Source of the DNA: Candidatus Omnitrophota bacterium
GTDB lineage: Bacteria > Omnitrophota > Gorgyraeia > Gygaellales > Profunditerraquicolaceae
Direction of reading: 5' to 3'
Assembly (NCBI GenBank): GCA_018825985.1
Contig: JAHKAP010000071.1
Location: 7,556-71,555 of the forward strand
DNA: 64,000 bases
Both the position numbers and the translations under genes were made by a program. Position 1 is the first letter of the stretch, and every line of letters starts with the position of its first letter. Below are positions 11,554-48,422 of this stretch, in pieces. Under the pieces are notes generated by a model. The model made no database searches and was not told the origin of the DNA. It saw only the letters and a program-made list of their open reading frames with translations.

Positions 11554-11562
11554 TCCTTTTTC

Positions 11563-32867: not shown

Positions 32868-33944
32868 TCAACGAGTTAGCAATCTTTTTCTCAGTAGAAA
32901 TACCGCTTTTAGCGTTAATTTATAAACATCCTGGATCTTATTTTGGAGAAGTATATAGATAAGGCAGGGAAGGCCATAAAACTTTAATTTTTTTTGAATC
33001 AAGAATAGAATTGCCTTTCTTTGATAATCCGCATTGATCGTCTTCAGCCTAATTTGTTTAGGATCACGCGGTTTTAATGACCGGTAAGTATAATATAAAC
33101 AGTATGATAAAGTTCCTTCCAGGCCGAGTAATTTTGCCTCTTCTCTGGCGTCATTCCAGTCAATTCTATCTTGATAATTCCGGACGAATTCAAAGATATC
33201 TGTAAGGAGTATGAGCCTCTCAAAAGAGTGGCTGAAACTATGCAGGCACAGATGAAATAAATGATGCTGGCAGGATAGCGCCAGGGCGTTCGCTCCTGCT
33301 ATGTTAACGCTGGAAGCTTCGGACCAGATCTTTTCCGGGTTTACCCTACCGGCAATAAAACTCCTCATCCAGGTCGAAGTCAGAATATCCCAATGCAAAT
33401 CAATAGATATAGAAATACTTCTGAGGCGGTCGACTTTCGCGAACAAAACAGAATAAGATAATGGGTCATTAAAAGAAGTATTGATGCTATCAGCAGCGCT
33501 ATATCCTGAATCCAGCAGAACTTTGCCTATCCTGAAAAAGTCATCCTTTTTGATAAGAATATCCATATCCGACATCTGCCTTAAGGCGATATTTTTATAA
33601 ACAGCCTCGGCCAGAAAGATACCTTTCAAAAGGATAACCTTAATTTGACTTTGCTCAAAAATACTCAGCAGCCTTGCCAATTCCTCGTATATTAATGTAT
33701 TCCTGGCGCAGTTATTATAGTAAATTGATTCCAACTCCTTAAAAATCGCTGGCGGCAGATAGCCTTGAAAACCAAACCGGTTTAAATGATAATAAAGCAG
33801 ACAGGCAACGCCATGTTGTTTGGAGACCTTAAGCAGATAATCCCAATCAAGTCCTGACTTTAGTAATTCTTCGGCTTTAGTCAGCCTTGATTTATCGGGA
33901 TCGATAACAGAAAACAAAATAACTATCCGCTCTTCAATTCTCAT
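32868..33944 (-). CDS. Uncharacterised nucleotidyltransferase family protein (PF14907-like)
   Basis: ALRQMSDMDILIKKDDF carries a DxD nucleotidyltransferase motif. The overall length and pattern match the nucleotidyltransferases found beside HprK-like kinases in RiPP clusters. Confidence 0.55.
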   Translation of the reverse strand: MRIEERIVILFSVIDPDKSRLTKAEELLKSGLDWDYLLKVSKQHGVACLLYYHLNRFGFQGYLPPAIFKELESIYYNNCARNTLIYEELARLLSIFEQSQIKVILLKGIFLAEAVYKNIALRQMSDMDILIKKDDFFRIGKVLLDSGYSAADSINTSFNDPLSYSVLFAKVDRLRSISISIDLHWDILTSTWMRSFIAGRVNPEKIWSEASSVNIAGANALALSCQHHLFHLCLHSFSHSFERLILLTDIFEFVRNYQDRIDWNDAREEAKLLGLEGTLSYCLYYTYRSLKPRDPKQIRLKTINADYQRKAILFLIQKKLKFYGLPCLIYILLQNKIQDVYKLTLKAVFLLRKRLLTR

Positions 33945-34032: not shown

Positions 34033-35766
34033 TTACTGGGTGCCGAATAAATCGCGGAATCCGGGATCTTGTTTAATCAGGATTTGAGGTTTATCTATTA
34101 TAATAGCTCCGGGCCCGGATAAATAATAAACCGCATCCATACCCATAACAGTGGATAATCTATGGGAGACTACGATCAAAGTCATATCGGGCTGGGCCTG
34201 TTTAAGGTTGGATATTATCCTCTCCTCACTTAATGAATCCATTGCCGCAAAAGCTTCATCCAGGATCATGATCTTCGGTTTTTTTATCGCTGCCCGGGCC
34301 ATCGCGATCTTTTGCTTCTGGCCCTCGGAAATCCTGCAGGCATTCTCGCCGATAACTGTGTCAAAACCCGCGGTTAAATTGCTTGCTAAATCATCCACGC
34401 CACAGAGCCTGGCAGCCTCGGTCATTTCTTCTGTGCCCGCCTGATCCAAGCCATATTTGATATTATTGGCTATACTATCATTCCAAAGAAATGGTTCTTG
34501 CAAAGCAAAACCAACCTGGCTTTTTAACGTGCCAGGGTCTATTTCTCTGATATTATGGCCATCAATAAATATATCCCCTTCCCAGAGATCATACAACCCC
34601 AGGATCAAACTTAGAATTGTGGTTTTACCGCAGCCTGATCTACCGGCAATGGCTATCCGGCTGGCACCCGGCAGAGTAAAACTTAAATTTTTTAATATAC
34701 TCCTACCCGGACAATAGCCGAAACTGACATTTCTAAATATAATCTCTCCTTTTTTGAATATTGGCTTTGAGGTATTACTCCGGGCTGATGTATCCTGGTC
34801 GTCATTCAAAATTTTATCTATTCTTTCACAGGATATTAACCCGGTTAAAGCAGACTGGAAAAAACGGGCTAATTCATTTTCCAGGCCCACTAACTGGCCA
34901 AAATATACCATTATAGCGGTTAAACTGCCCAAAGACATCCTCCCCTTTATAACCTGATAACCGCCGTAAAACGTGATTATCCCGACCGCAGCCTTGCTTA
35001 ACATTTCGACCAAAAAACCAGATACAGTTTCCAATTTAAGGCTTTTAAGGCTGATCCCTGCGTAACTGATCAGCTTCTCCAGGTATGATCTTATGCTGGC
35101 TGTTTCTCTGCCGAATACCTTAATCAGTTGTATATGTGAGAAGGTTTCTTCTAAATACCGGTATATATTCTCAGAACTCCTGATTAGATCTTCAATGATT
35201 AAACGCATCTTCCTACCGAAATAACGGCTGGGTAAGAATAAAAAAGGAGAAATTAAAAACGAAATAAGAGTCATCTTCCAATTAAGATGAATAACAATTA
35301 CCAAGATGAGCAATAACCTGAATAAAACAAAAAAGATGGCCGGCACCCTGATAGTGATAAATTCCGCGATATTATCTATATCATAATTAAGTTTATAGAT
35401 ATGCTCAGCGCTTGTCTTATCTTTAAACCAGCCTAGGGAAAAACTCTGCAGGCGGATAAATACCGATTTATTCAGCTCATAATTGGCTTTAATTCTTATA
35501 TTGCGGTAGAAATAATCCTTGATTCTATTTGCTAAATCCGCGGCTAAATAGATCACACACCCTAACAGCGTAAGTATAGCGAAAGACTTAAAATCTTTTT
35601 TAACCAGGCCGACGTCAATAATAAACTTAGCCAGATAGGGGTTGATCAGGCTTAAAATTATACCGATATTGCTTAAAACAACCAGCCAAAACCAGAGCTT
35701 CTTATAGGGCGAGATATATTTAAAAAATTTTAATAATAATCTTAGGTTGGTGAATTTAAATTTCAT
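34033..35766 (-). CDS. ABC exporter, fused permease and ATPase, with no peptidase domain
   Basis: Six TM helices at the N-terminus. Walker A GRSGCGKTT, signature SEGQKQK, Walker B IMILDEA. Confidence 0.85.
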   Translation of the reverse strand: MKFKFTNLRLLLKFFKYISPYKKLWFWLVVLSNIGIILSLINPYLAKFIIDVGLVKKDFKSFAILTLLGCVIYLAADLANRIKDYFYRNIRIKANYELNKSVFIRLQSFSLGWFKDKTSAEHIYKLNYDIDNIAEFITIRVPAIFFVLFRLLLILVIVIHLNWKMTLISFLISPFLFLPSRYFGRKMRLIIEDLIRSSENIYRYLEETFSHIQLIKVFGRETASIRSYLEKLISYAGISLKSLKLETVSGFLVEMLSKAAVGIITFYGGYQVIKGRMSLGSLTAIMVYFGQLVGLENELARFFQSALTGLISCERIDKILNDDQDTSARSNTSKPIFKKGEIIFRNVSFGYCPGRSILKNLSFTLPGASRIAIAGRSGCGKTTILSLILGLYDLWEGDIFIDGHNIREIDPGTLKSQVGFALQEPFLWNDSIANNIKYGLDQAGTEEMTEAARLCGVDDLASNLTAGFDTVIGENACRISEGQKQKIAMARAAIKKPKIMILDEAFAAMDSLSEERIISNLKQAQPDMTLIVVSHRLSTVMGMDAVYYLSGPGAIIIDKPQILIKQDPGFRDLFGTQ

Positions 35767-36751
35767 GTTTTTTAAATAACCGTGTTAATCGACAGTAATA
35801 ATCCAGCGGTTTTTCCTTGCCGCCGGTTTCTAAATAGGCCTTTCCGGGGCACCAGCCGCATAAGGGCCTGAGGTTACAATCCCGGCATTTAGAATCAGTT
35901 TTAAACTCTTCCTTGGCCATATAAGATGATAACCTATTCAAACCTGACTTAATATCCGCCCTTAAAAGGTTTACTTTAGGCTTTCTTAATAAATCACACA
36001 AAAACATATTTCCGTAGGGATCAACGTAAATCCCGTCTGCGCTTGAGATCACGCAGGGATAGAAGCGGGATTCAATGTTTCGGGATGAAGAACCTTCGCA
36101 GCCATCATTACTTTGTTTTTTAAAATGGTATAACCCCAATACCTGTTCAGGGGTAATCCTTAGTTTGCAAGGCGCGATATCCCCATTTAAATTTGGATAT
36201 AAAATATGATTGGGGGTAAAATTTGAGCCTATCCCCTTGAGGTATTTTTTTATTTGCGGCAGGTGCTTAAAATTATCCTTAGTCACCTGGGTTTTGATTT
36301 TAAATTGCAGACATGAATCTAAAATTAACCCTATTCCGCGCATTGTTTTCGCAAACGAACCCTGTATTCGGGAGATTTTCTCGTATAGATCCTTGTCAAC
36401 CGCATTTAAGGTTATCTCAATTACAAATGGGGGATTTTTTTTTAGATATTTGATTATCCTACGATTCAAAGAATAACCATTGGTAAAAATAGTGGTGATA
36501 AAACCTTTTTTCCTGGCATAAGCGTAGATCTCCAGAAAATCATCCCTGACAATGGGGTCTCCGCCAGATAAACAGAGCCAGATAACCCCAGCGCAGGCAA
36601 GCCTGTCTAAAACAAATTTTACTTCTTTAGTAGTTAATTCCTTTTTAGAATAGGCTTTTTTGTTAAAACAATCGGTATAACAATGCCGGCAATGAAGGAC
36701 GCATCTAAAGGTTAATTCGAACCGGCAGGCGCTCGGCCGGTTAAGGCTCAT
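35756..36751 (-). CDS. Radical SAM / SPASM-domain peptide-modifying enzyme (paralogue 1)
   Basis: CVLHCRHC is the CxxxCxxC cluster. The C-terminal CRDCNLRPLCGWCPGKAYLETG is a SPASM motif. About 35% identical to 37735-38793. Confidence 0.8.
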   Translation of the reverse strand: MSLNRPSACRFELTFRCVLHCRHCYTDCFNKKAYSKKELTTKEVKFVLDRLACAGVIWLCLSGGDPIVRDDFLEIYAYARKKGFITTIFTNGYSLNRRIIKYLKKNPPFVIEITLNAVDKDLYEKISRIQGSFAKTMRGIGLILDSCLQFKIKTQVTKDNFKHLPQIKKYLKGIGSNFTPNHILYPNLNGDIAPCKLRITPEQVLGLYHFKKQSNDGCEGSSSRNIESRFYPCVISSADGIYVDPYGNMFLCDLLRKPKVNLLRADIKSGLNRLSSYMAKEEFKTDSKCRDCNLRPLCGWCPGKAYLETGGKEKPLDYYCRLTRLFKKHEI

Positions 36752-36798: not shown

Positions 36799-37731
36799 TC
36801 AGATCGACCTCACGAATGGAATAATGCTTTTACTCTTGATTAAACCTAAACTCAAACACGGCATATTCTTGACTAAATCCAAGCCTAAAAAAATAATATT
36901 TTCGGTTAATTTTCTATCCCAGAAATTCGGAAAAATATTCGGATAGAGGAGTTTGAATGCCTCAGCGGATGATATGGCTTTAACCGTATTATTCGTATAC
37001 TGGTAAATAAAAAAAAGCTTGTCTAACTCGGCCCGGCCAATATAAGAATTCTGAAAACCCCGGAATTCGCCGCACCAGGGAGAGCCGTAAATAAAAAACC
37101 TCCCCTTTACCTTGCGGACAATGACGTGGTCATCATTTAATACTTCGGCCCGGCTGTGCTCATGCCAAGTCCTGGCTAAAGTCGTCTTTCCCGCGCCTGA
37201 TCTGCCCATAAATACCAGGCCCTTGCCATTGCTATCCCTTATCCCTGCTCCGTGCAAGAAAATCCCTGATTTCCTTTGCGCGAAATAATTTATAAAAAGC
37301 ACCTGCAGAAAATCATAGGTCAGGTCAGCCACATTCCAAACCAGGCCTTTATCTTTTTTAGGGAGCACATAAACCCGGGCCCGGTCAAAAGCCTTATTAA
37401 AATAGGTTACCTGCTCTTTATCCTTTGCCACAGTCTTATAGATATAAAACCCATTTTTTTTAAGGACCTGCCAATTCTCAGTCCGATCCTGGGGATGGAT
37501 GACTTTAAATACATCAATCGCACCTGAAAGCTTTGGCAGGAAATTCTCAACCTCTACATCTATTTTTATATCGGATTTAACATTTTCCCTACTGACAAAA
37601 TTACTAAAGAATTGTTTAAACCAAGGGTTCTCTTCGCCCTTATGAAAAGCCTCATGGTAAAAAGCGCTTTTTATCTCAACTGTTACGCCGGCGATTTTAA
37701 GCCGGACCTTATTTGATTTTTTATCGAACAT
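36799..37731 (-). CDS. HprK-related P-loop kinase (HPr kinase C-terminal domain-like)
   Basis: LHGAGIRDSNGKGLVFMGRSGAGKTTLA...VLNDDHVIV aligns to the HPr kinase C-terminal domain ([25 protein letters not shown]...LVADD). Confidence 0.65.
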   Translation of the reverse strand: MFDKKSNKVRLKIAGVTVEIKSAFYHEAFHKGEENPWFKQFFSNFVSRENVKSDIKIDVEVENFLPKLSGAIDVFKVIHPQDRTENWQVLKKNGFYIYKTVAKDKEQVTYFNKAFDRARVYVLPKKDKGLVWNVADLTYDFLQVLFINYFAQRKSGIFLHGAGIRDSNGKGLVFMGRSGAGKTTLARTWHEHSRAEVLNDDHVIVRKVKGRFFIYGSPWCGEFRGFQNSYIGRAELDKLFFIYQYTNNTVKAISSAEAFKLLYPNIFPNFWDRKLTENIIFLGLDLVKNMPCLSLGLIKSKSIIPFVRSI

Positions 37732-37734: not shown

Positions 37735-38793
37735 TTAATTTAAAACACCTGATTTTGCCAATTCGCAAAAGAACCTGACTGGTTTTTCCCGCTCTCCGGC
37801 CTCTAAATAAGCCCGGGCCGGGCACCAACGGCAAACCGGCCTTAACGCGCAATCCTGGCATTTGGAATCAGAATTAAACTCCTGGCTTAAGACCCTGGGA
37901 TTGATAGTTGAAAAACTTTTTTTTAAAGAAGCATCTCTTAAATTTACGCTGTATTCCTGGAAAAATACACAATACCTAAGCCTGCCGAATGGATCAATAA
38001 ATACTTTATTCTTACCGGCGTCGCATTGAAAGAGGTATTTCCTCTGCCTCGGTAATTCCGGGGCATCTTTAAACCTGCCATCTTGGCATTCGCTTGAGAT
38101 ATCCTGGTCCTGTTTAAAAACCGCAAAAATTTCTTTAGGGGAGAGCCGGTATTTACAAGGCGTTTTATCACCGTTAAGCCGGGGATATATCAATGGGTCA
38201 CATTTAAAATAATGCTTATTACCCGGTTTACCTAATACCTTTTCTGCCCATTGCTTAATCCCGGCTATCTCGTTTTTATTGCGCTTAAGCAAGTTAGATT
38301 TAATGATCACCGGAAGTTTTCTTTGGATCAAAAAGGCGATATTCATCATGGCCAAAGAAAAAGAACCATTTACCCGGGTTATCTTTTCATAGTTTTCTTT
38401 GTTAATACTGTTTACGGTTATTTCTATCGCGTACGGCGGGGATTTAGTTAGATAATCGATGGTCTTTTTATTAAAACCCAAGGCATTGGTAAATAAAGTG
38501 ACCAGAAATCCTTTTTCCCGGGCATAAACGTAAATATCTAAAAAATCCTCTCTTATTAAAGGCTCTCCTCCGGTTAAAGTCAACCAGATACAGCCTTCCC
38601 TGCGCAGGCTGCTGATCAGCCTCTTGATCTGCGTGGTATTGAGCTCATTTCCCTTATTTTCCGACCCCTTGCAAAAACAATGCGGGCATTTCAGATTACA
38701 CCGGTAGGTCAACTCAAGATGGGCGCTAAGAGGAAAGGATATTTTTTTAGTATTGAGTTTTTGATAAAAAAAATCGAGGTTGCGGCTCTTCAT
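37735..38793 (-). CDS. Radical SAM / SPASM-domain peptide-modifying enzyme (paralogue 2)
   Basis: CNLKCPHC is the cluster. The C-terminal CQDCALRPVCRWCPARAYLEAG is a SPASM motif. Confidence 0.8.
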   Translation of the reverse strand: MKSRNLDFFYQKLNTKKISFPLSAHLELTYRCNLKCPHCFCKGSENKGNELNTTQIKRLISSLRREGCIWLTLTGGEPLIREDFLDIYVYAREKGFLVTLFTNALGFNKKTIDYLTKSPPYAIEITVNSINKENYEKITRVNGSFSLAMMNIAFLIQRKLPVIIKSNLLKRNKNEIAGIKQWAEKVLGKPGNKHYFKCDPLIYPRLNGDKTPCKYRLSPKEIFAVFKQDQDISSECQDGRFKDAPELPRQRKYLFQCDAGKNKVFIDPFGRLRYCVFFQEYSVNLRDASLKKSFSTINPRVLSQEFNSDSKCQDCALRPVCRWCPARAYLEAGEREKPVRFFCELAKSGVLN

Positions 38794-38806
38794 TCTCAGA
38801 AATAGA

Positions 38807-38866
38807 ATTAGGGACAGCGACTATTTTTTTAACTGTAAAATTAAAAAATAGTCGCTGTCCCTAATT
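38807..38866. repeat. REP element pair (inverted)
   Basis: ATTAGGGACAGCGACTATTTTTTT ... AAAAAATAGTCGCTGTCCCTAATT. It lies between the radical-SAM gene and the precursor ORF. Confidence 0.9.
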
Positions 38867-38869
38867 AAT

Positions 38870-39073
38870 TTAACTATATTGCCCGCCGCTAGACCATTTT
38901 TGGCTGGATAAAACGACCTTGGTAGCAGGGGTCGTCCCCTCGCAAATATTTTGCTTTGGGGCACTATTACCGGCCATATATCCGGTGTTATAACAGGGGC
39001 AGACCAGGATAGCCTGTTCAGGGTTTAGTTTTATCCGGGTTATCGCAGGATTAAATTTCTTTTTTGCGCTCAT
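38870..39073 (-). CDS. Candidate RiPP precursor peptide (67 aa)
   Basis: The small ORF MSAKKKFNPAITRIKLNPEQAILVCPCYNTGYMAGNSAPKQNICEGTTPATKVVLSSQKWSSGGQYS is preceded by a perfect Shine-Dalgarno sequence (AAAGGAGG, 7 nt upstream of the ATG). It sits between the PqqD-like and radical-SAM genes and is flanked by REP hairpins. Confidence 0.45.
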   Translation of the reverse strand: MSAKKKFNPAITRIKLNPEQAILVCPCYNTGYMAGNSAPKQNICEGTTPATKVVLSSQKWSSGGQYS

Positions 39074-39087
39074 CTTCCCCTCCTTTA

Positions 39088-39111
39088 ATTAGGGACAGCG
39101 ACTATTTTTTT
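39088..39111. repeat. REP element (single copy)
   Basis: ATTAGGGACAGCGACTATTTTTTT. It lies between the precursor ORF and the PqqD-like gene. Confidence 0.85.
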
Positions 39112-39394
39112 AATAACTGATCGCTTTAGCCTCTTTTAAATCACTAAGGAATCCTGATAGAGTTTTATCAATCTGTTCGGCTGGGCCGTCAAATTCATCC
39201 AATATTTGTTTTTTCACCTGGGCAATGGTATTTTTGCCGTTTAGCATCTTCCAGATCAAAGAACCTGTTTCATTTAAAGAATAAATACAATTGATATCGT
39301 CAGAGTGTTTATATATAGGCACCAGGATGGTTTCACCTGCGATATCCCTGGCGACCATATTAGGATTCTTCTTAATTACCGTATTTGGCTTCAT
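39110..39394 (-). CDS. PqqD-family protein (RiPP recognition element)
   Basis: 94 aa. VARDIAGETILVP...YSLNETGSLIWKMLNG...IAQVKKQILDEF matches the PqqD/RRE fold pattern. Confidence 0.65.
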   Translation of the reverse strand: MKPNTVIKKNPNMVARDIAGETILVPIYKHSDDINCIYSLNETGSLIWKMLNGKNTIAQVKKQILDEFDGPAEQIDKTLSGFLSDLKEAKAISY

Positions 39395-39407: not shown

Positions 39408-39442
39408 AGCGGCTATTTTCTTAATTAAATAGTCGCTGTCCC
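39408..39442. repeat. REP element pair (inverted, short spacer, one copy with G-to-A variant)
   Basis: ATTAGGGACAGCGGCTATTTTC..AAATAGTCGCTGTCCCC. It overlaps the stop codon of the S24 peptidase gene. Confidence 0.85.
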
Positions 39443-39813
39443 CTCTCTATTAACCAAGCGATTAATGGCGCGATTATAACTATAGCCCTGTAAAGAAACT
39501 GCTGATTTTCGGCGCCACAGTTGATTAATTTATCATTTTTTATTATACCACAAACCCGGCCTAAAAGCATTTCTTCAGTTATTTTTTCCGGCGCTGATAA
39601 TGAAAGGTCTCCCCGGGTATAAAGTAAGTAATTTTCCCCGGGTTTATCTTTTCTTATCAAGCGATGGCAAACAATCTGATTGCCGGAATTATATAAGAGC
39701 AAATCCCCTGTTTTTAAATCCTTAAGGGGAGTTTTTCTGACAATTACCTTCTGGCCTGACTTTAAGAAAGGCCACATACTTTGCCCGCTAACCTCAAAAA
39801 ACAATAAATCCAT
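39421..39813 (-). CDS. S24/S26-family (LexA / signal peptidase I-like) serine peptidase domain protein
   Basis: EVSGQSMWPFL is the Ser nucleophile box. IVCHRLIRK is the Lys general-base region. 130 aa, standalone. Confidence 0.55.
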   Translation of the reverse strand: MDLLFFEVSGQSMWPFLKSGQKVIVRKTPLKDLKTGDLLLYNSGNQIVCHRLIRKDKPGENYLLYTRGDLSLSAPEKITEEMLLGRVCGIIKNDKLINCGAENQQFLYRAIVIIAPLIAWLIERGQRLFN

Positions 39814-39837
39814 ATTAATAGGGACAGCGACTATTTT

Positions 39838-40515
39838 CTATTCTTCCTTCGGCCTGCCTACTGGCAATTGAAACAACCTTTTGTGAAGATTTTTCTCTAG
39901 CGTTTCTATAAACCCGCTTGTTCCCAAAGGACGACCGGTAAGTGTGTATTTTCTAATATTTTGTAAGATATTACCTTCTTCCGAATAATCAATATAATTT
40001 CGCCAATAGTTATAGGACATACCTGTTATTTCAAAAAAATTTTCAAACTCAAAAATCTTATCTTTTTGTTGGTTGGTATGAGCCAATGCACTCGACCATT
40101 CCCATTCCCATGGCTTTTTTACCAATCCCGCACGCACTGGGTTTCGTTCAACATAACGAACAGCTAGTATCAAATGAGCTTCATCTAAAGCGCATGAATA
40201 AAAACGGCCTTGCCATAGATGCCCGCGTTGCTGCAGTTTTTTGTTAAAATATTGCGCATATCGCATATGGGCAATATTAAATGTCTTGGCCAATGAATCA
40301 TTTTCTGCAGGAATACCCACAAAATGAACATGATTTTGCATTAAACAATAGGCTAAAATACAAAGGCCATATTGTTTGCTATATTCTTTTATCCATTCAA
40401 GGTATTGTTTCCTATCATGAACATCAGAGAAAACATCCTGTTGATAATTCCCTCTCTGGGTAATGTGATGTGGCAACCCTCTCGCTACAACTCTTGCAAT
40501 TCTAGTCATATTCAA
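39838..40515 (-). CDS. REP-associated tyrosine transposase (RAYT, IS200/IS605-like HuH Y1 transposase)
   Basis: The HuH motif is MQNHVHFV and the catalytic Tyr lies in LAVRYVERNPVRAGLV. It is flanked on both sides by REP copies in inverted orientation (39818-39839 and 40592-40612). Confidence 0.8.
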   Translation of the reverse strand: MNMTRIARVVARGLPHHITQRGNYQQDVFSDVHDRKQYLEWIKEYSKQYGLCILAYCLMQNHVHFVGIPAENDSLAKTFNIAHMRYAQYFNKKLQQRGHLWQGRFYSCALDEAHLILAVRYVERNPVRAGLVKKPWEWEWSSALAHTNQQKDKIFEFENFFEITGMSYNYWRNYIDYSEEGNILQNIRKYTLTGRPLGTSGFIETLEKNLHKRLFQLPVGRPKEE

Positions 40516-40591: not shown

Positions 40592-40612
40592 TAAAATAGT
40601 CGCTGTCCCTAT
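40592..40612. repeat. REP element (single copy) upstream of RAYT
   Basis: AAAATAGTCGCTGTCCCTATT. Confidence 0.85.
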
Positions 40613-40687
40613 TAAATATTCAAAAAACAATAAATTATTCATTTTCTATTTAAGAGATAGTCCATCTCATAGTTAATGATTGACGGA

Positions 40688-41611
40688 CTATTGGCCAGTT
40701 GAAACTTTCGTAGATACGCCCCAGGTCTGAGATTCTTTATAAGTATACGCGCCCTTGGATATAGGATCGAGAACTTGGCTAAGGAAATAGCTTAAATCAG
40801 AGACGAATTTTCTGGGTACAAAGACAATATCCTGGGACTGCAGAATAACGTTCTGGCGCAAATCACCCTTAAAGACCTTGGCGACATTTATCCTCTGTAT
40901 ATTGGGGGCATTAAATCCTCCCCGGATCAAAACTGTGCTGGAGGGCACGCCATCCCGGGTCAAGCCACCGGCCATAGAGATCGCTTCCATCAGGGTCCGG
41001 GCGCCGGTAACTGAATAAAGGCCGGGCGCGTTAACCTGGCCCAATATCATGACCCTGGCCCCTCCCATCTTCTTTAAAGAAATAGAAACCTCAGGATATT
41101 TAATGAAATCTTTTAGCTTTTCAGTAATAACCTCATCCAGTCCCGGGATGGTCAGGCCGGCAGCCTGGATATCTCCAACCAGAGGAAAAGAGATCTTTCC
41201 GTCAGGGCGGACAATCACATCCTGATCAAGGTCCTGATTCTGCCATACCGTAATACGCAGGTTATCGTCCTCTCCGATCAGATACTGGTTTACATTAGCC
41301 GGGGTTTGAGCCTTAATAGCTACAATCAGATCAGCTGTTTTTTCCAAGGATTGATTTTTATTATCGGAAACTGCAGGCTTAACAATAGCTTTATTCGGCT
41401 CAGGTTTTAGCGGATTAGCCAAATTCATAGCCTGATTGTATTCGTCTTCGGCATCCTTAAACTTTCCCTGTTGATAATAAAGGTTACCCCTTAAATAATG
41501 CTCCCTTATCATATCCTGGGTATCATTATACTCGGAATAAACCGGACCCCAGATTAAAACAATAAATAATACGGTTATATAAATATTATTTTTGATGAGG
41601 CGCAATGGCAT
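40688..41611 (-). CDS. Wza/GumB-like outer-membrane polysaccharide export protein (PES motif and SLBB domains)
   Basis: LRITVWQNQDLDQDVIVRPDGKISFPLVGDIQAAGLT (Poly_export) and MILGQVNAPGLYSV...LMEAISMAGGL (SLBB). The start was moved to M13 to remove the overlap. Confidence 0.75.
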   Translation of the reverse strand: MPLRLIKNNIYITVLFIVLIWGPVYSEYNDTQDMIREHYLRGNLYYQQGKFKDAEDEYNQAMNLANPLKPEPNKAIVKPAVSDNKNQSLEKTADLIVAIKAQTPANVNQYLIGEDDNLRITVWQNQDLDQDVIVRPDGKISFPLVGDIQAAGLTIPGLDEVITEKLKDFIKYPEVSISLKKMGGARVMILGQVNAPGLYSVTGARTLMEAISMAGGLTRDGVPSSTVLIRGGFNAPNIQRINVAKVFKGDLRQNVILQSQDIVFVPRKFVSDLSYFLSQVLDPISKGAYTYKESQTWGVSTKVSTGQ

Positions 41612-41612
41612 T

Positions 41613-43127
41613 TTAGTTTTGCTTATCCGATTCCAGGATGACTTCAATCTTGCGTTTCAGATCATCGGATTTCTGTTTTACTTTGGGATCAATCGCTGAA
41701 CCGGTTATGGACTGCCCGGAGGGAGAATTTCTTTCCTGAAGGGCGGCATTAAGTTTCAACACGGTAGACAGGTCATCCAGGGTTTTCCTTTGACGAGCCC
41801 TGTTTTCAGCCAGTTCTTTCTCTAGCTCAGCTGAACGCAATCTTAAGCTAGCCACCTCATCCCTTAAAGTATCCATTTCTTTTCTGCGGTCGGAGAGTTC
41901 TTTTTCTTTCGCAGCCACAAAATCAGAAAGCTGATTCACCTGCATTTTTAAACTGTTAAAAGACAGGTCGGTTTCCTGCAGCCTGGCCAGTTTAAGCTGA
42001 AGCGATTTATTTTCATCTTCAAATTTAGTCAACTGTTGGGTAAGGTAATTAAGGTTTTTCTGAAGGGAATCAGCCAGATCGTTCTTTTTAGCCAGTTCAT
42101 CTTTCATATCCCGCAGCCGGTATTGAGAAGAGACTTTTTCCGCCTCAACCTCTTTAAATTTATCCCGGTCGATCTGAGCCTCGCTTAAATTCTTCTCTAA
42201 AACAGTTATCCTGTTCTGCAGGGCGGTTATTTTAGCTATTGATTCTTTGGCCTCTTTTTTGGCCTGGTCCAGATCCAGTTCTTTCCTGGCTAAGATCTCG
42301 GATAGCCTGGTCAACTGCAAAGAGCCGTTAGCTTCGCCTGGTTCTTTGAGATTACTTGGCAGTCTGCCTGCTTTAGCCCGGGATACCTCGGATTCCAGGC
42401 TCCTGACCTGATTTTCTTTTTCAGCCAGGCTCGCCTTTAATTTATTTATATTATCAATAAAAGCCTGGGTTGCATTACCCCTGTCGCTAGTATCTTTCTT
42501 GGAAACGCCCAGCCTCACCTGTAATTCTTTATTGGCGTCCATCAAAATCACCTGGGCCTGCTTTAACTTGGCCAATTCATTTTTCTGCTTATCTATCTCA
42601 TCATCCTTTATAAGGGCAGCTTTCTCAAACTCTTCCATTTTTTTCTTTAAGGGAGAGATGAATTTCTTATCCACATTACCCAGATCATCCTTCACCCGCC
42701 TTGACTCTTCTAATATCTGGCTGAATTCCCTGGTTAGATTCTGCAGGCGGCTTGAGATACTTAAGTTTGTCTCTTGTAATGCGGATTTTTCAGTCCTTAA
42801 CCGGTCGATCTCACGGCTAAGCTGCTCGATCGTGCCCTGGGAATTACTTAAAGCAGACTTGATCCCCTGGATATCGCGCAGCTCATTCAGGCGTTTTTCT
42901 TTTTCTATCAATGATGATTTTACCTCTTCTTTTTCTTTGAGCGCTTTTTTCAATGAATCATTGAGCCTGGACCTTTCAGCCTTAAACTTAACTGAAACGG
43001 TAGAAAAAAATAAGACGAATGCTATAATGACAATTACCAGATAAACAAACTTTCCGTATTTTGACGCACGCATAGCAAGCCACAATCCAAACATTATTTT
43101 TATCCCTCTTTTAAGTATTCCAGGCAA
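41613..43127 (-). CDS. Membrane-anchored coiled-coil protein
   Basis: N-terminal TM helix (FVYLVIVIIAFVLFF) followed by about 450 aa of heptad-rich E/K/L/Q sequence. Confidence 0.5.
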   Translation of the reverse strand: MPGILKRGIKIMFGLWLAMRASKYGKFVYLVIVIIAFVLFFSTVSVKFKAERSRLNDSLKKALKEKEEVKSSLIEKEKRLNELRDIQGIKSALSNSQGTIEQLSREIDRLRTEKSALQETNLSISSRLQNLTREFSQILEESRRVKDDLGNVDKKFISPLKKKMEEFEKAALIKDDEIDKQKNELAKLKQAQVILMDANKELQVRLGVSKKDTSDRGNATQAFIDNINKLKASLAEKENQVRSLESEVSRAKAGRLPSNLKEPGEANGSLQLTRLSEILARKELDLDQAKKEAKESIAKITALQNRITVLEKNLSEAQIDRDKFKEVEAEKVSSQYRLRDMKDELAKKNDLADSLQKNLNYLTQQLTKFEDENKSLQLKLARLQETDLSFNSLKMQVNQLSDFVAAKEKELSDRRKEMDTLRDEVASLRLRSAELEKELAENRARQRKTLDDLSTVLKLNAALQERNSPSGQSITGSAIDPKVKQKSDDLKRKIEVILESDKQN

Positions 43128-44161
43128 TCTTCGATATAAAGCACTGGGTTCCCGGCCAGGTCAATCTTTTTTACTTCTTTTAAGGGTTTACCAAAAGCAT
43201 CCTGAATAATATTAACCACCGGCCTAAGAGGCAAGGCTTCATTCTCTTCTATCACTACCCCTATTTCTTTGGTATTTAAACTCACCTTTATGCCTACCGG
43301 AAAAATACCGACCCTTTCAATCAGAACCTTGATTATCCTGGAATTAAACTCACCCTTATTGTTTAAAATAACATTTATAGCCTGTAAAGGAGTATTTTTT
43401 TTCCGGTACGGACGGTCATGGATCATTGCCTCATAAACATCAGCTACTGCCAGTATTTGAGCATACTCGTTTATCTCGTTTCCTTTTAAGCCTGACGGGT
43501 AACCCGAACCGTCACAGCGCTCATGCTCCTGGCGCACCGTTTCAAGCACCTTTTGGCCTAAACCTTTACAATAATTACTTAAAATGTCCGAACCAACCGC
43601 AGGATGCTCCTTAATGATTTTAAACTCCTCAGCGCTTAACTTTTTAGGCATATTAATTATATCCATATACTTGGTTATTCCGATATCATGCAAGAGCGAT
43701 GCGTTGCCGAGTTCAATTAATTGCGGCTTATCATAACCTAACCCCATGCCTAAATCTAAGGAAATAATAGAGGAATTTAATACATGATAAAAGAGATAAT
43801 CTTCGGGAATGGGATAATCATAAAGACACTGCCGTAAAAGTTCTTTGCGAACCCGATTCCGGGCCAGGATAGCGTTTATCCTTTCTAACAGGCTCTCAAT
43901 TCCCGGATCAATACTAAAAGACTTACCCAGGTCCGCGCTATATATCTGTTTAATCTTAGCTAATACCTCTTCGTAAAGAATATGGCTGTCCTCAATCTTT
44001 TCTTCCGGAACATCCTTATTCAATACCGAAGCTATATTTACCTCCTGAATCGGTTCCTTTTTAGGAGGCGGAATTTCTTTAGGGCCTGGATCATTAACCA
44101 TCCGGGCTTCTTTAGCTTTTTCCTCTTTGTTCTTTTTCAGGATATCGGATAAATTGAACAT
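43100..44161 (-). CDS. HD-GYP domain c-di-GMP phosphodiesterase
   Basis: HDIGITKY (HD), KEHPAVGSDIL, HERCDGSGYPSGLKG (the HHExxDGxGYP motif). Confidence 0.8.
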   Translation of the reverse strand: MFNLSDILKKNKEEKAKEARMVNDPGPKEIPPPKKEPIQEVNIASVLNKDVPEEKIEDSHILYEEVLAKIKQIYSADLGKSFSIDPGIESLLERINAILARNRVRKELLRQCLYDYPIPEDYLFYHVLNSSIISLDLGMGLGYDKPQLIELGNASLLHDIGITKYMDIINMPKKLSAEEFKIIKEHPAVGSDILSNYCKGLGQKVLETVRQEHERCDGSGYPSGLKGNEINEYAQILAVADVYEAMIHDRPYRKKNTPLQAINVILNNKGEFNSRIIKVLIERVGIFPVGIKVSLNTKEIGVVIEENEALPLRPVVNIIQDAFGKPLKEVKKIDLAGNPVLYIEDCLEYLKEG

Positions 44162-44162
44162 T

Positions 44163-45038
44163 TTATATATCTAATTTCTTACCCTGCCCGTCGGAATAAG
44201 CAGATGGGGTTGAAGAAGTGGGAACATCGGATTCCGAGTATTTCAAGTCTTCGGTTATCTTTACAATGGTTTTTCTATCAATTATCTTTAAACCGCTGCC
44301 GAAACCGATTAATAAAGCCAAATCACAAACAGTATTGATCTTACGAGGGGTGCCGCTGGCAGCCAGATATATTTCTCTAAAACAATCGTCTTCAAATACC
44401 GGCCGGGTTGAACCAGCCACCTCTAAACGATGAAGGATATATTCCCTGGTCTCAAACTCATCCAGCTTGGTCAAATGGTATTTGACCGCCATCCTTTGGG
44501 TCAACTGGGGAAGGTTAGCGATTACGCTTTTTAATTCAGGCTGGCCGATCATGATGATAGTCAGAAGAAACGCGTTATCCAGCTGAAAATTCAGGAGCAG
44601 TCTTAATTCCTCAAAAATATCGGTCCCTTGTATGGCCTGGGCTTCATCAATGACTATAACGGTGTGCTTATCGACGTTAAAATTGGAGTAAAATATCTTA
44701 TGCAGTTGATGAAACAATTCAACCTTGGAATCGCTGACCTGGCCTCCGGTCAGTTGATGAGTAATCTCCTGTATAAATTCTAAGGCGGTTAAACGGGGAT
44801 TAAGAATAAAAACCGCGTGGTAGCGGTTTTCCTGCTGTAACTCATGCCAGAGGACCCGGCTTAAAAGGGTTTTTCCGCTGCCGAATTCTCCGGTCAAAAG
44901 AGCGGCGCCTTTATGTTCCCTGACCACATACAAAAGCCTGGCCAGCGCCTCCTTGTGTTTCTGGGAATAATAAATAAAACGCGGGTCCGGCGTATTCTCA
45001 AAAGGCTTTTCTTTTAATCCCCAAAAGTCCTCATACAT
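44163..45038 (-). CDS. ExeA/GspA-like AAA+ ATPase (module 1)
   Basis: MYEDFWGLKEKPFENTPDPRFIYYSQKHKEALARLLYVV...LLTGEFGSGKTLLSR. The N-terminal ExeA signature and the Walker A motif are both present. Confidence 0.85.
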   Translation of the reverse strand: MYEDFWGLKEKPFENTPDPRFIYYSQKHKEALARLLYVVREHKGAALLTGEFGSGKTLLSRVLWHELQQENRYHAVFILNPRLTALEFIQEITHQLTGGQVSDSKVELFHQLHKIFYSNFNVDKHTVIVIDEAQAIQGTDIFEELRLLLNFQLDNAFLLTIIMIGQPELKSVIANLPQLTQRMAVKYHLTKLDEFETREYILHRLEVAGSTRPVFEDDCFREIYLAASGTPRKINTVCDLALLIGFGSGLKIIDRKTIVKITEDLKYSESDVPTSSTPSAYSDGQGKKLDI

Positions 45039-45043
45039 ACTTT

Positions 45044-45646
45044 TTATTTAGCGGGAGCGGAAACAAGCGCTTTTTTGCTTACAGCGACGAATGAAAAATC
45101 CTTAGTGGTCTTTTCATCAATGTGATAGCTAAGCATGCCTTTCATATTCTGGGCATCAGCGCTGACCTCTCCCCGCCAGAAAACTACTGTAGCCGGGGAT
45201 TTTTCAGAAGTCTGCATGGTCTCCCACACTGCCGAGCCATCAGGCTGGGGGCTTAAGGTATAATTAGTGGGAGGAAAATGCAAGCCGATATAACCCGACA
45301 CAGAGATCTGATTATTCCTTAAGACCAGTATTTCGGTCTCTTTTTTCACTTTTTGCGCGGTTGTAACCGGAGTCAATTCCAGGATCCACTCGGTATTATT
45401 CAATTCCGCGCGCATCTTATCGATTAAGGCCTTCCGGGCATTGATCAACTCAACCTGAGCTTTATTATCCGCTTTTTTTACCGCATCAGGCGCTCTGACC
45501 GGCTCTGCTTTTTTTACTTCGGCCTGAATTGTTGGCGCTACTTTTACCGGTTCTTCTTTCTTCTTTCCCCACCAGCTAGCTTCGGCAATCGGTAAATTAA
45601 CCATTAATAACCCAACCACTAATGACCCTATTACGAACTTCATCAT
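45044..45646 (-). CDS. Hypothetical secreted protein
   Basis: Signal peptide MMKFVIGSLVVGLLMVNLPIAEA. No recognisable domain. Confidence 0.35.
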   Translation of the reverse strand: MMKFVIGSLVVGLLMVNLPIAEASWWGKKKEEPVKVAPTIQAEVKKAEPVRAPDAVKKADNKAQVELINARKALIDKMRAELNNTEWILELTPVTTAQKVKKETEILVLRNNQISVSGYIGLHFPPTNYTLSPQPDGSAVWETMQTSEKSPATVVFWRGEVSADAQNMKGMLSYHIDEKTTKDFSFVAVSKKALVSAPAK

Positions 45647-45663
45647 CTCCCTCCTCCTATTTT

Positions 45664-46623
45664 TTAATCAACCGGTTTCTTCCCTTCCCAGGTCTGCCAG
45701 GTAAGAATATACTTCTTTACCCAGTCGACATCTTTATCTTCAGCTTTAGCTAATTTTAGAAACTTACGGAAATTCTCAATAGCCTTAGGCCTGTTGCCTA
45801 AATACTCGGCATAAATATAACCCAGGTTATAATGAGAATACGGGTCATCCGGATTCAACTCAATAGCTTTTTCAAATTCAGCCGTGGCCCTAGAAAATTC
45901 TTTACTCTGAGTATAAAACACGCCCAGGTTGTAATGCATAAGCGCGGTCTCTTTTATTAAAACCTTGTTTTCGCGGGCTAATTCCGCGAATTTCGCGGGG
46001 ATCTGAGCGATCTTTTGTTCTAAAGACCGGTTTTTTGCCAGCGCGCCTTCATAAAGCTTCTTGGAATCGTTTAATTGCCGTCGATAGATCTCAACCTGGG
46101 CATAAGCGTCCAGCTTTTGTTCATCCAAAAGTTTTACTTTCTGCTCCAGTATTTTAAAACGCCGGATTAAATCGGTATTTTCTTTTTGGAGATCAGCTAT
46201 CTTCTTGCGCGTTTCAGGAACTATTCTATACTCAATTTTGATTTTTTCAAGAGAATTCTTTAGGTTTTCTTTCTCCTGAACCAATTGAGCCTGAGCACTT
46301 TCCAACTCTTCGAGCCTCTGTTGTAAAAGCGCGCTCTGTTCAAGCCTGGCCTGAAGTTCCTTCTGCAACCTATCCTTTTCTATTTGAACCTTACGGTCAT
46401 CAGCCTCCTTATTGTCAAATTTGTTCTTATATTCATAGAGGTTTTTGATCTGGATCAAAAGATTATCCCGGTCAGCGACTACCTCCTGGTTTTGATTTTT
46501 CAGGTCCTCATATTTTTTCTCCCAGCTCTCCTGGGCTAATGCTGTATTAATAATAGAAAAGGTAAAGGTAGAGGTATAGGTAAAGATAAATACAAAAAAT
46601 ATTCTGTTAAAGATCTTTTTCAT
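45664..46623 (-). CDS. Secreted coiled-coil protein with C-terminal TPR domain (short paralogue of the giant 48656-52348 protein)
   Basis: Signal peptide, about 200 aa of coiled coil, and a C-terminal LMHYNLGVFYTQSKEFSRATAEFEKAIELNPDDPYSHYNLGYIYAEY...YILTWQTWE that is homologous to the C-terminus of the 1230-aa protein. Confidence 0.5.
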   Translation of the reverse strand: MKKIFNRIFFVFIFTYTSTFTFSIINTALAQESWEKKYEDLKNQNQEVVADRDNLLIQIKNLYEYKNKFDNKEADDRKVQIEKDRLQKELQARLEQSALLQQRLEELESAQAQLVQEKENLKNSLEKIKIEYRIVPETRKKIADLQKENTDLIRRFKILEQKVKLLDEQKLDAYAQVEIYRRQLNDSKKLYEGALAKNRSLEQKIAQIPAKFAELARENKVLIKETALMHYNLGVFYTQSKEFSRATAEFEKAIELNPDDPYSHYNLGYIYAEYLGNRPKAIENFRKFLKLAKAEDKDVDWVKKYILTWQTWEGKKPVD

Positions 46624-48422
46624 TTTTCCCCCTCGGAAATTCTTGCCGGCTTTATGTCAATGGTTCTTTCTTCTATTTTACGCTCTGGATAATCCTGGAA
46701 AGCCTTGGGCGCGCCCGCTTCAGACTCTTCATTTATAGGCTTATAGTTTTGATATTCTTTATCTAAACGATACTGTAGATCGCGGTCATAGCCGGTTATA
46801 AACTCATCCCCTTTTATAATATGCGGGGTAATTAAAACCAGTAATTCGGTCCGGACGACTTTGGTGCTATCCTGGGAAAAAGCCTTACCTAAAAAAGGTA
46901 TCTTGCTTAAAAAAGGAGTTGCCTGCGAGTCTTTAACTTTCTCTTCCTTGCTTAACCCTCCGACTAGAATAGTCGTACCCTGTTTAACCATAACCGTGGT
47001 CTCAGCGGTAGAGGTATCGATTATAGGAATTTTATTCCCCTGGCTGGTCTCCAGGTAACTAAGAACGCTGCTGATCTCAGGCTTTATCTTTAATGTGACA
47101 AAACCTTCATCATTGATAGTGGGGGTCAGAAATAACTGCAGGCCTACATCGATATAAGTAACCGCCTCTGAGATGGTATCGGTGCTCTGGCTTTTGGTGG
47201 TAGTAGTCGTAATATATGCCTGCTTCTCGCCAACATGGATCTTGGCCTCCTGATTATTTATTACCGCTAATTTCGGATTAGAAAGTATCCGGGTCTCGCC
47301 TAATGTTTGCAGATATTTGATTATCGTATCAAAATCCTGGTCCTTAGTTACCATCCCAAGATGCATCTCCTGAGTCCCGATACTTTGTTTACCGCCGGCA
47401 AAATCAGCTGTGCTGGTCCCGGAAAAAGGATAGGAACCTACGGCATTTTGTTGATTCAGGGTCGCCAGCCTGGATTGCCAACCGGTAGTTGTGCTATTGA
47501 CTACATAACTAAAAGGATAAGCGCCAAGATAGGTTAAACCGCTATTAATTCCCAGGTCGAATAAACCCTCCCACTGTATACCGCTGCTTAATTGATTATT
47601 TAGCTTGACTTGAACTATCTTAGCGTCAATAAGGACTTGCTTGGTTTTTCCATCCAAACCATCTATCAATTTACTTATCTGCTCCATACGCTCAGGCAAG
47701 GTCTGAACAATAACTTGATTAGTCCGCTCGTCTGCCTTGATGTATCCGACTTTTTTTAAGTCCAGCTGAACCTGCAGCTGCGTCTCTACTTCTTTGGCCC
47801 GGGCGTACTTTAAATTAAATATCCGGATATCACTCATCTTCTCCATTGCCTTTACCGCCTCTTCCATATCGGATATCTTCTCCGGGGTATCTATGATCAA
47901 CACTGCTCCCGAATCAGCATCGATCATGACCTTGCCTACTTCGCTTTTAAAGGCATTGAGTAAAGTTGTGGCGTTTTCCGGTATAGTATAATTAATATGC
48001 AATACTTTGACCTGTCGCAGATCGGTAAAATTCTTTCCGTAACGGGCTTTAAATTCTTTTTCGGTCATTACGTTATAGATACTGCCTTGTTTATCATAGG
48101 CCAGGCTATTGCTGCGCAGCATTATATCAAATACATCTTTAACCGGGACATTGTCTACCATTAGAGTAATTCTGCCCCCCACATCCTTGGTTGGTATGAT
48201 ATTCAAGTTAGCCTTGCCGGCCAGAAATTTTAGGGCCTCATTCACCTCAATATCCCGCAGGTCCAAAGAGATGATTTTATCATTAAACTCCGGGGTCGGC
48301 GTAGACTGAGGGCCCATACCGATTAAAGCTGCCAGATGTTTATTATCATCCGCTGCCCGGGTAAAACCCAAAGTCAAATGGGCCGCAATAATTACAAATA
48401 TTATTACCCTTAATAACTTCAT
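46620..48422 (-). CDS. Secretin (GspD/PilQ family), module 1
   Basis: C-terminal secretin motif LVGGLSKEEKVKDSQATPFLSKIPFLGKAF...ELLVLITPHII. N0-like and N1-like domains are upstream. Signal peptide. Confidence 0.85.
   Translation of the reverse strand: MKLLRVIIFVIIAAHLTLGFTRAADDNKHLAALIGMGPQSTPTPEFNDKIISLDLRDIEVNEALKFLAGKANLNIIPTKDVGGRITLMVDNVPVKDVFDIMLRSNSLAYDKQGSIYNVMTEKEFKARYGKNFTDLRQVKVLHINYTIPENATTLLNAFKSEVGKVMIDADSGAVLIIDTPEKISDMEEAVKAMEKMSDIRIFNLKYARAKEVETQLQVQLDLKKVGYIKADERTNQVIVQTLPERMEQISKLIDGLDGKTKQVLIDAKIVQVKLNNQLSSGIQWEGLFDLGINSGLTYLGAYPFSYVVNSTTTGWQSRLATLNQQNAVGSYPFSGTSTADFAGGKQSIGTQEMHLGMVTKDQDFDTIIKYLQTLGETRILSNPKLAVINNQEAKIHVGEKQAYITTTTTKSQSTDTISEAVTYIDVGLQLFLTPTINDEGFVTLKIKPEISSVLSYLETSQGNKIPIIDTSTAETTVMVKQGTTILVGGLSKEEKVKDSQATPFLSKIPFLGKAFSQDSTKVVRTELLVLITPHIIKGDEFITGYDRDLQYRLDKEYQNYKPINEESEAGAPKAFQDYPERKIEERTIDIKPARISEGEK

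Follow-up and report, generated by a model that had tools for sequence, protein, structure and literature searches.

A conserved short gene in a radical-SAM, PqqD and HprK-like kinase cassette of an Omnitrophota bacterium probably encodes a RiPP precursor peptide

A short open reading frame (ORF) on the minus strand at 38870..39073 of a 64,000-nucleotide stretch from a Candidatus Omnitrophota bacterium (contig JAHKAP010000071.1, assembly GCA_018825985.1; hereafter the window) is, judged by its conservation, a real gene, and it probably encodes the precursor of a ribosomally synthesised and post-translationally modified peptide (RiPP). The enzymes of the surrounding cassette would cross-link this precursor, phosphorylate it on its last Ser, trim it and export it. 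The initial annotation of the window, made from its letters alone, had proposed a precursor served by the adjacent RiPP recognition element (RRE), radical S-adenosylmethionine (radical-SAM) enzymes and kinase. This proposal is supported by the synteny of orthologues, by the pattern of selection on leader and core, by a large family of related peptides and by the co-occurrence of peptide and cassette in two samples; the assignment is now stronger than the window sequence alone could show.

The ORF starts with ATG, comprises 67 codons plus a stop and encodes MSAKKKFNPAITRIKLNPEQAILVCPCYNTGYMAGNSAPKQNICEGTTPATKVVLSSQKWSSGGQYS. The location of the ORF, its ribosome-binding site and its slot between the RRE gene (PqqD family; 39110-39394) and the gene of a 352-aa radical-SAM enzyme (37735-38793), as read in the initial annotation, were all confirmed. 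The Shine-Dalgarno sequence AAAGGAGG lies at 39079-39086 on the minus strand, 5 nt before the ATG, and a similar AAAGGAG follows a copy of a repetitive extragenic palindromic (REP) element upstream of the orthologue in locus L001. The peptide is identical to P0001, a hypothetical protein in a Candidatus Omnitrophota metagenome-assembled genome (MAG). Two orthologues (P0002 and P0003; 65 and 66 aa, 58-67% identity) are encoded in the same slot between PqqD and the first radical-SAM gene of loci L001 and L002, where the order is otherwise that of the window: AAA_22, HD-GYP, coiled-coil protein, Poly_export, S24-like, PqqD, peptide, radical-SAM, kinase, radical-SAM, ATP-binding cassette (ABC) transporter and NTP_transf_5.

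All three orthologous peptides share residues 12-30 (TRIKLNPEQAILVCPCYNT), C44, T48-P-A50, K52 and the C-terminal Ser. Within alignment columns 11-30, third codon positions account for 8-11 of the 9-13 nucleotide differences per pair; in the leader, the proportion of nonsynonymous differences (pN) is 0.08-0.12 against a synonymous proportion (pS) of 0.64-0.92, near saturation, while pN reaches 0.37-0.45 in the remainder, the core. Such a pattern marks a gene that is translated, its N-terminal part being under constraint while the C-terminal part evolves freely. A chance ORF caught between two REP insertions could also be short and bracketed by a perfect 26-nt inverted REP pair, as this one is. 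However, the orthologues lack the downstream REP, nucleotide changes in the leader are almost only synonymous and 742 related clusters are found, leaving this explanation with next to no credence.

As far as sequence comparison can tell, the precursor family is large and unnamed, and combines a conserved leader with a hypervariable core. A profile of three peptides, searched against 1.84 billion cluster representatives, matched 742 proteins at the threshold of E<=1e-3 (clusters at 50% identity) and 51 at E<=1e-10. A word-indexed protein search with the single peptide returned 3 proteins only; the family surfaced only with the exhaustive profile search and a six-frame scan. Family members are typically 60-99 aa long and match over their N-terminal 35-45 residues; among the best 150, lengths span 38-99 aa (62-87 aa in most) and the similarity does not extend past the initial 30-60 residues. 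The consensus of 152 members is (K/R)-K-x-K-F-K-P-x-I-T-R-[VI]-K-L-N-P-E-Q-A-V-L-x-C-x-C-[YFW], in which F, P, L-N-P-E-Q-A and the first Cys are kept in 145-148 of the 148 motif-anchored members and CxC in 144-148, with one or two more Cys about 17-25 residues on. Three or four Cys are present in 132 of these 148, the third lying 17-25 residues after CxC, and the tail past the last Cys is about 19 residues long. The part that follows the leader motif (median of about 51 residues) is rich in Ser, Gly and Thr and hypervariable in sequence. In scans of Pfam-A and NCBIfam release 20, no model recognised the window peptide or any of 25 diverse relatives. Faint library matches to lipoprotein models (E about 0.1) and to 'rhodolasso' (E 0.046) were rejected as chance or leader-level similarity and no family was assigned from them.

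The last residue is Ser in 144 of the 152 members, Thr in 7 and Ala in 1, compared with 10.8% Ser among background ORFs of similar length, and this terminal Ser is the sole invariant, position-specific Ser of the family. The penultimate position varies (S 79, V 16, I 11, T 11 and others; Y in only 2 of 149 relatives), and it is Y in the window peptide, N and F in the orthologues. The penultimate Tyr is thus not conserved, and the suggestion that it takes part in a C-terminal Tyr chemistry like that of MftC and PqqE is left without support.

The association of peptide and cassette was followed in two samples, with gene context inspected in about 45 informative loci. The first, anchored on the enzymes, consisted of loci of one genome per species chosen from an alignment of radical-SAM homologues. 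All close Omnitrophota loci of sufficient length encode a family peptide, some of them two, on the same strand beside the radical-SAM gene. Distant relatives, found by scanning the six-frame ORFs of the loci, lie directly before or after the radical-SAM gene in WOR-3, Aminicenantia, Aerophobetes, Desantisbacteria, Syntrophaceae/Desulfobacterota, Nitrospirota/Thermodesulfovibrionales, Endomicrobia, Clostridia and one Methanophagales archaeon. Small homologous ORFs next to homologous radical-SAM genes, which the initial annotation had put forward as a check, are hence found across at least eight named lineages including one archaeon. These ORFs have the form M-(K-rich)-Y-x-x-P-x-[IVLF]-x-x-[VI]-x-L-x-x-E-E-x-x-L-x-x-C followed by a Cys-containing core that ends in ...G-S, ...G-T or ...S-S; of the 16 convincing ones, 12 have Ser, 3 Thr and 1 Ala as the last residue, while eight control pattern matches on the minus strand end in neither Ser nor Thr. 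The usual order in distant loci is PqqD, radical-SAM, peptide, kinase, S24-like, NTP_transf_5 and, in some, the ABC transporter, and polysaccharide-locus genes of the Wza, Wzc, AAA_22 or HD-GYP type often adjoin the cassette.

The second sample was anchored on the peptide, through an independent scan of metagenome contigs for family ORFs. It yielded 95 ORFs in 79 loci, with 1-4 per locus; of the complete ones, 77 of 93 end in Ser and 9 of 93 in Thr. Among the loci of at least 10 kb, 13 of 16 contain both kinase and radical-SAM genes and 12 of 16 a PqqD gene.

At L010 6239-6778 and 9834-10367 and at L003 3-263 (Omnitrophota MAG BS750m-G22), one uninterrupted frame encodes both a PqqD domain and a family peptide (...AYKTPEIAKVKMQPEQAVLACC...VIT). 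Here the RRE may be naturally fused to the substrate it serves, or translation of the peptide may start at an internal Met.

Another observation on the distant members concerns the residues right after the leader, where six of them carry L-[TAMW]-[AGS]-C, which resembles a lipobox and has no hydrophobic segment before it (L014 1517-1675, L016 8037-8198, L019 4673-4840, L030 7902-8060, L034 8084-8236, L040 8147-8326). A lipoprotein signal peptide was considered for this motif and, without such a segment, ruled out; the motif could just be the place where the protease cuts ahead of the first Cys. An alternative that could draw on this motif and on the existence of some orphan copies is that the small protein stays unmodified and only happens to share the operon, acting for example as a regulator, as a partner resembling a chaperone or as a secreted peptide of lipoprotein type. 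Such a protein would not be expected to pair an invariant N-terminal third with a hypervariable rest and an invariant last residue. The leader also carries the RRE-binding motif, a discrete RRE is always encoded next to it, and the hydrophobic signal segment is missing ahead of the lipobox-like motif; this explanation is considered very improbable.

The proteins of the cassette are listed in Table 1 with the parts of the peptide gene. The profile of the PqqD protein matched the lasso RRE TbiB1 (2e-10), 9x8z_B, a 'PqqD family protein' (3.5e-7), and then 9x90_B, a 'lasso peptide biosynthesis PqqD family chaperone'. The protease scored just below the cut-off of TIGR02228 (E 2.2e-11; 43.9 bits against 51.85), its profile matched the eukaryotic SEC11C/SEC11A catalytic subunits at about 3e-10, and its Ser12, His50 and Asp69 are invariant in 17 homologues. 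Matches of these two proteins in the PDB required profiles, as single sequences gave spurious beta-propeller 'Bagel' repeat matches for PqqD and none for the protease.

Both radical-SAM proteins contain an N-terminal CxxxCxxC and a CxxCx5CxxC near the C-terminus. The structural model of maturase 1 (mean predicted local distance difference test score, pLDDT, of 83.7) has SkfB, PqqE and SuiB (TMq 0.70-0.72) and CteB as best PDB folds, and SuiB, CteB, PqqE and also anSME match it over its full length. Matches of maturase 2 to the NCBIfam models of AhbD, NirJ2 and the mycofactocin maturase are all far below cut-off. With 331-352 aa, these enzymes leave no room for the fused RRE of SuiB or CteB, which fits a discrete PqqD protein. 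The kinase gave weak library matches as a single sequence, while its profile (A3) matched HPrK/P structures 1jb1 and 2qmh at 5e-7 over the P-loop catalytic core H...G.G.L..G.SG.GKS...DD. Members of the kinase family match HprK_rel_B (up to 3e-13), ScmC, HprK_rel_A and PF07475, and the best folds for the model (pLDDT 89) are ATP-PEPCK and HPrK/P. In precomputed Pfam annotation, the homologues of the kinase (36799-37731, minus strand) are labelled PF27840.1, so that a family must recently have been defined for this protein.

Table 1. Features of the peptide gene, its cassette and the adjoining repeats (window coordinates)
Feature	Position	Strand	Basis
Precursor peptide gene (67 aa plus stop)	38870..39073	-	ORF; P0001 identical; P0002 and P0003 at same position; family of 742 clusters
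Shine-Dalgarno AAAGGAGG	39079..39086	-	Read from sequence, 5 nt before ATG
Leader part, residues 1-24: basic N-terminus, F7-x-P9-x-I11, TRIKLNPEQAILV	39002..39073	-	Invariance, pN/pS, family consensus; leader/core boundary approximate
Core part, residues 25-67: C25-P-C27-Y, C44, then S/T/G-rich tail	38873..39001	-	Cys conservation; otherwise hypervariable
C-terminal Ser67 codon, proposed phosphorylation site	38873..38875	-	Terminal Ser/Thr conservation in family
Discrete RRE, PqqD family, lasso-type, 94 aa	39110..39394	-	PF05402, 52.4 bits (cut-off 23.4); best NCBIfam lasso_PqqD_Bac
SEC11/archaeal-type signal-peptidase-I-like protease ('S24-like', 130 aa), proposed leader peptidase	39421..39813	-	TIGR02228, SEC11C/SEC11A
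Radical-SAM/SPASM-type maturase 1, 352 aa, without fused RRE	37735..38793	-	PF04055; structural model; >285 homologues
HprK/PEPCK-superfamily P-loop kinase, 310 aa	36799..37731	-	Profile, family matches, model
Radical-SAM/SPASM-type maturase 2	35756..36751	-	PF04055; paralogue of maturase 1
MsbA-like ABC exporter, fused permease and ATPase	34033..35766	-	PF00664 and PF00005; TIGR02203 MsbA E 9e-84, below cut-off
PF14907 (NTP_transf_5) nucleotidyltransferase	32868..33944	-	E 6.5e-57
REP inverted pair, hairpin between peptide gene and maturase 1	38806..38866	.	Mobile-repeat insertion; L001 and L002 lack it at this position
Lone REP arm directly preceding the Shine-Dalgarno sequence	39085..39110	.	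Copy at same place in L001

As judged from its genes, the cassette joins the recently described machinery of linear polyphosphorylated peptides (LPP) to radical-SAM maturases, with a different precursor family. LPP (lppA-K-B-S-D-N of Paenibacillus alginolyticus; Popov et al., Nat Commun 2026; PMC13381572) were discovered by way of an archaeal-type signal peptidase in capsule loci of Bacilli. Their core comprises the type I signal peptidase LppS, the discrete RRE LppB, the HprK-like kinase LppK, the uncharacterised NTP transferase LppN and the MsbA-like pump LppD; LppK places up to four phosphates on one Ser, and cleavage of the leader by LppS requires the RRE and prefers the phosphorylated precursor (PMC13381572). 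All five components have a counterpart in the window cassette, namely a signal-peptidase-like protease, a lasso-type RRE, an HprK-like kinase, a PF14907 transferase and an MsbA-like exporter, and the models TIGR02228, PqqD, NTP_transf_5 and TIGR02203 of the LPP supplementary table are the same as those matching the window proteins (PMC13381572). Further likenesses are a precursor that is conserved at its N-terminus and varies strongly in its C-terminal part, the setting in a polysaccharide locus and the possibility of several precursor genes per cluster.

The two systems differ in other respects. The window cassette contains two radical-SAM/SPASM-type genes, and relatives one to five, whereas the main text on LPP makes no mention of radical SAM enzymes and none were found in the supplementary text searched (PMC13381572). 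LPP precursors have the conserved N-terminus YxxPxVLxHQxIxFETxxS ahead of their variable C-termini (PMC13381572), while the window family lacks ...VLxHQxIxFETxxS as well as a conserved Ser near the junction, shares only a [Y/W/F]x(x)Px[ILV] element and contains invariant Cys and an invariant C-terminal Ser. Finally, LPP and paeninodins are described by the authors as restricted to Bacillota (PMC13381572); the window cassette occurs in Omnitrophota and many other phyla, in contrast to LPP.

These comparisons bear on whether the peptide could instead be the precursor of an LPP-type linear phosphopeptide, with both radical-SAM enzymes acting elsewhere in the exopolysaccharide pathway, on a sugar or a cofactor. 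None of the five genes that make up the complete LPP core encodes a radical-SAM enzyme (PMC13381572), the cassette lies inside a polysaccharide locus, and the closest NCBIfam matches of the two radical-SAM proteins include the non-peptide enzymes NirJ2, AhbD and MoaA. However, a radical-SAM gene immediately adjoins the peptide gene in almost every locus, across phyla, and the family keeps invariant Cys, of which none is reported for LPP precursors. In addition, structure comparison points first to the peptide maturases SkfB, PqqE, SuiB and CteB, and both enzymes lack an RRE of their own while a discrete one is present. A function of the two enzymes away from the peptide is accordingly held to be quite unlikely.

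Phosphorylated lasso peptides offer a second comparison. In the clusters of paeninodin (PadeK) and pseudomycoidin (PsmK), an HprK-family kinase phosphorylates the side chain of the C-terminal Ser, and the NTP transferase PsmN is needed for the addition of one or two hexoses to the phosphate of pseudomycoidin (PMC6993621). The window cassette likewise combines an HprK-family kinase and a PF14907-type transferase with a precursor ending in Ser, a lasso-type RRE and an ABC exporter. Unlike lasso clusters, it encodes neither an Asn-synthetase-like cyclase (C) nor a transglutaminase-like B2 cysteine protease among its eight proteins, as scanned with Pfam and NCBIfam; radical-SAM enzymes stand where the cyclase would be and a signal-peptidase-like protease where B2 would be.

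The SynChlorMet cassette of NCBIfam (TIGR04248-04251: ScmC, ScmD, ScmE and ScmF) resembles the window cassette in containing a PqqD homologue, two radical-SAM/SPASM proteins and the HprK-related ScmC. All four Scm models are matched weakly by the window proteins, and family members reach 7e-12 for ScmC and 8e-12 for ScmD. The scores of the window proteins are far below the curated cut-offs (17.4 against 125 bits for ScmC, 32.2 against 100 for ScmD, 60.8-64.2 against 400 for ScmE and 53.6-64.9 against 400 for ScmF), hence the window cassette represents a different, sister family. No precursor is known to have been assigned to the SynChlorMet cassette. Sactipeptide and ranthipeptide systems (SkfB, CteB, AlbA, PapB) share with the window cassette a radical-SAM/SPASM-type maturase, a Cys-containing core and a leader recognised via an RRE. 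They differ in that the RRE of the window is discrete and not fused to an enzyme, that thioethers are here a prediction, and that the kinase, the NTP transferase and the signal-peptidase-like protease are foreign to those systems; no NCBIfam sacti- or ranthipeptide model was reached by the window proteins. In the open-access literature, no paper was found that combines radical SAM, HPr kinase and PqqD or that deals with SynChlorMet or PEQAVL, and searches on Omnitrophota and RiPPs returned general surveys of biosynthetic gene clusters only.

From these comparisons, a putative maturation pathway can be drawn. The lasso-type PqqD protein would bind the leader at its F-x-P-x-I element, which is YxxPxI in distant relatives; YxxPx[IVF] of distant members is the RRE-binding motif of lasso peptides and LPP (PMC13381572). 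The two RRE-less radical-SAM/SPASM enzymes would then modify the Cys-containing core, with thioether cross-links from C25, C27 and C44 as the likeliest product; conserved Cys together with folds like those of SkfB and CteB make this the simplest guess. The HprK-like kinase may phosphorylate the side chain of the invariant Ser67, possibly several times, and the PF14907 NTP transferase could support a further, hexose-type addition on this phosphate, as PsmN does for pseudomycoidin. The SEC11/archaeal-type protease would remove the leader, with candidate cuts after A21 (PEQA/IL) or just before C25. When F7-x-P9 is aligned with Y-x-x-P of LPP, the LPP cleavage register points to the PEQA/IL bond, while the small residue found before the first Cys in most members fits the -1 position of a cut before C25. 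Export of the product would fall to the MsbA-like ABC transporter.

Several observations weigh against this reading. The window peptide carries F-x-P and not the canonical [Y/W]xxP. Neither radical-SAM protein matched the SPASM family PF13186 at E<=0.01 in Pfam, and the NCBIfam scores of both fall far short of all curated cut-offs. Ahead of a cut of the signal-peptidase type, Val24 would be an unfavourable -1 residue. The NTP-transferase step is the weakest link of the pathway because LppN was inactive in the published heterologous system (PMC13381572). The phosphorylated Ser of LPP is residue 3 of the core and not the C-terminus (PMC13381572), so that the Ser67 site is assigned here from conservation only. 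Finally, the peptide occurs without the cassette in 2 of the 16 large metagenome loci, L123 and L145, which means that the linkage of peptide and cassette is not absolute. Scattered extra precursor genes are common among RiPP families. Both orphan genes are far from any cassette: the one in L123 (3273-3473) has two PilZ-domain genes, a DUF4416 gene and a radical-SAM gene of unrelated type as neighbours, and the one in L145 (about 9001-9108) cytochrome c oxidase genes.

The role of the last residue is the point at which a further alternative has to be weighed. The peptide could be the precursor served by the cassette, with its terminal Ser or Thr as a recognition or attachment point (for C-terminal radical-SAM chemistry, for an ester or amide link to a polysaccharide or the envelope, or for the exporter) and with the kinase acting elsewhere. 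SPASM enzymes such as MftC act on C-terminal residues, and Ser and Thr make up 41% of the last 10 residues in the family, putting other hydroxyls on offer; the position of the LppK site within the core points the same way. Nevertheless, the only position-specific Ser of the family is its last residue, both characterised peptide kinases of HprK type in lasso clusters act on a C-terminal Ser (PMC6993621), and the replacement of Ser by Thr in about 5-10% of members fits a hydroxyl acceptor. An end that serves only for recognition or attachment is hence judged unlikely, and phosphorylation of the C-terminal Ser, as in the pathway drawn above, is strongly, if indirectly, suggested by the conservation of this residue and by the site used by the kinases of paeninodin and pseudomycoidin.

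The cassette lies inside an exopolysaccharide export locus in the window and in relatives, and an association with polysaccharide export genes is also seen for the LPP clusters of Bacilli. The cell surface or the biofilm matrix is therefore the probable place of action of the product. The polysaccharide/secretion-type part of the window locus (40688-48422 and 52490-55958, minus strand) comprises genes for a Wza-like Poly_export protein, a 504-aa coiled-coil protein, an HD-GYP protein and an AAA_22 ATPase, as well as secretin-like and TPR genes. The block upstream of the cassette is conserved in L001, L002, L084 and L159, and the genes for a 600-aa protein and AAA_22 have a second copy further upstream in the window. 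Far outside the cassette, a third radical-SAM ORF (2950-4113, minus strand) shows weak similarity to the cassette enzymes (E 8e-9) and is probably unrelated to the cassette.

The gaps between the genes of the operon contain REP elements, which are copies of a genome-wide mobile repeat and not part of the peptide system. The REP core TAGTCGCTGTCCCTAATT is present in 10 copies in the window against 0 expected; copies were located at 11561, 11606, 32783, 32830, 38806, 38849, 39087, 39398 and 39427, with others at 39815-39837 and 40593-40615. The latter are perfect 23-nt inverted flanks of a gene for a REP-associated tyrosine transposase (RAYT; 39838-40515, minus strand; NF047646, E 1e-19), which separates the Wza-like gene from the cassette; in L006, the cassette itself contains a RAYT gene (6290-6985). 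REP copies in minus orientation are found 3-15 nt upstream of six start codons (S24-like, PqqD, peptide, first radical-SAM, Wzc-like and one near 11540), indicating that nearly every intercistronic gap of the operon is a REP insertion. The last seven codons of the signal-peptidase-like protein (ERGQRLFN*; 39424-39442) are encoded by a REP copy, and since the L002 orthologue ends alike (ERGQRLFY*, about 5520-5545), the repeat has become part of the coding sequence. The same REP occurs in intergenic gaps of the orthologous loci (L001 9668-9690 and 9966-9990; L002 5520-5575), whose proteins are only about 50-60% identical.

REP hairpins had been placed on both sides of the peptide gene in the initial annotation, and this description holds for the downstream side only. 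There, the inverted copies 38806-38829 and 38843-38866 form a perfect 24-bp hairpin (-36 kcal/mol, z = -9.4). The upstream element is a single arm (39085-39110) whose sole perfect partner (38843-38868) lies 216 nt away, just past the stop codon, and in the fold of the whole region this partner pairs locally with 38806-38829 and not with the upstream arm. A conserved attenuator or stabiliser was ruled out for the hairpin, which is absent in L001 and L002; stabilisation of the precursor transcript in the window genome itself is possible. A scan for promoters and terminators gave nothing above shuffled expectation.

The assignment provides a probable substrate for a very widespread cassette of RRE, radical-SAM enzymes, HprK-like kinase, NTP transferase and signal-peptidase-like protease, and would make the LPP system one branch of a broader group that joins peptide phosphorylation with radical-SAM chemistry. 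For genome mining, the family offers hundreds of natural core variants with a simple signature, the leader motif and the terminal Ser. It also makes testable the roles of HprK-type peptide kinases and PF14907 transferases, the products of the radical-SAM enzymes and the tie to polysaccharide loci. A bolder extension, which we regard as rather unlikely, is that these peptides form a new RiPP class, cross-linked by radical-SAM enzymes and carrying a (poly)phosphate and a sugar on the C-terminal Ser, which would occur in one archaeon and in eight or more lineages of anaerobes, most of them uncultured, and would serve, not as antibiotics, in exopolysaccharide or capsule assembly. If so, a peptide of this class, for example in phosphoglycosylated form, could prime, anchor or cap the polymer or signal its production, and such a role would explain why this cassette and the LPP and paeninodin clusters of Bacillota all lie inside polysaccharide export loci.

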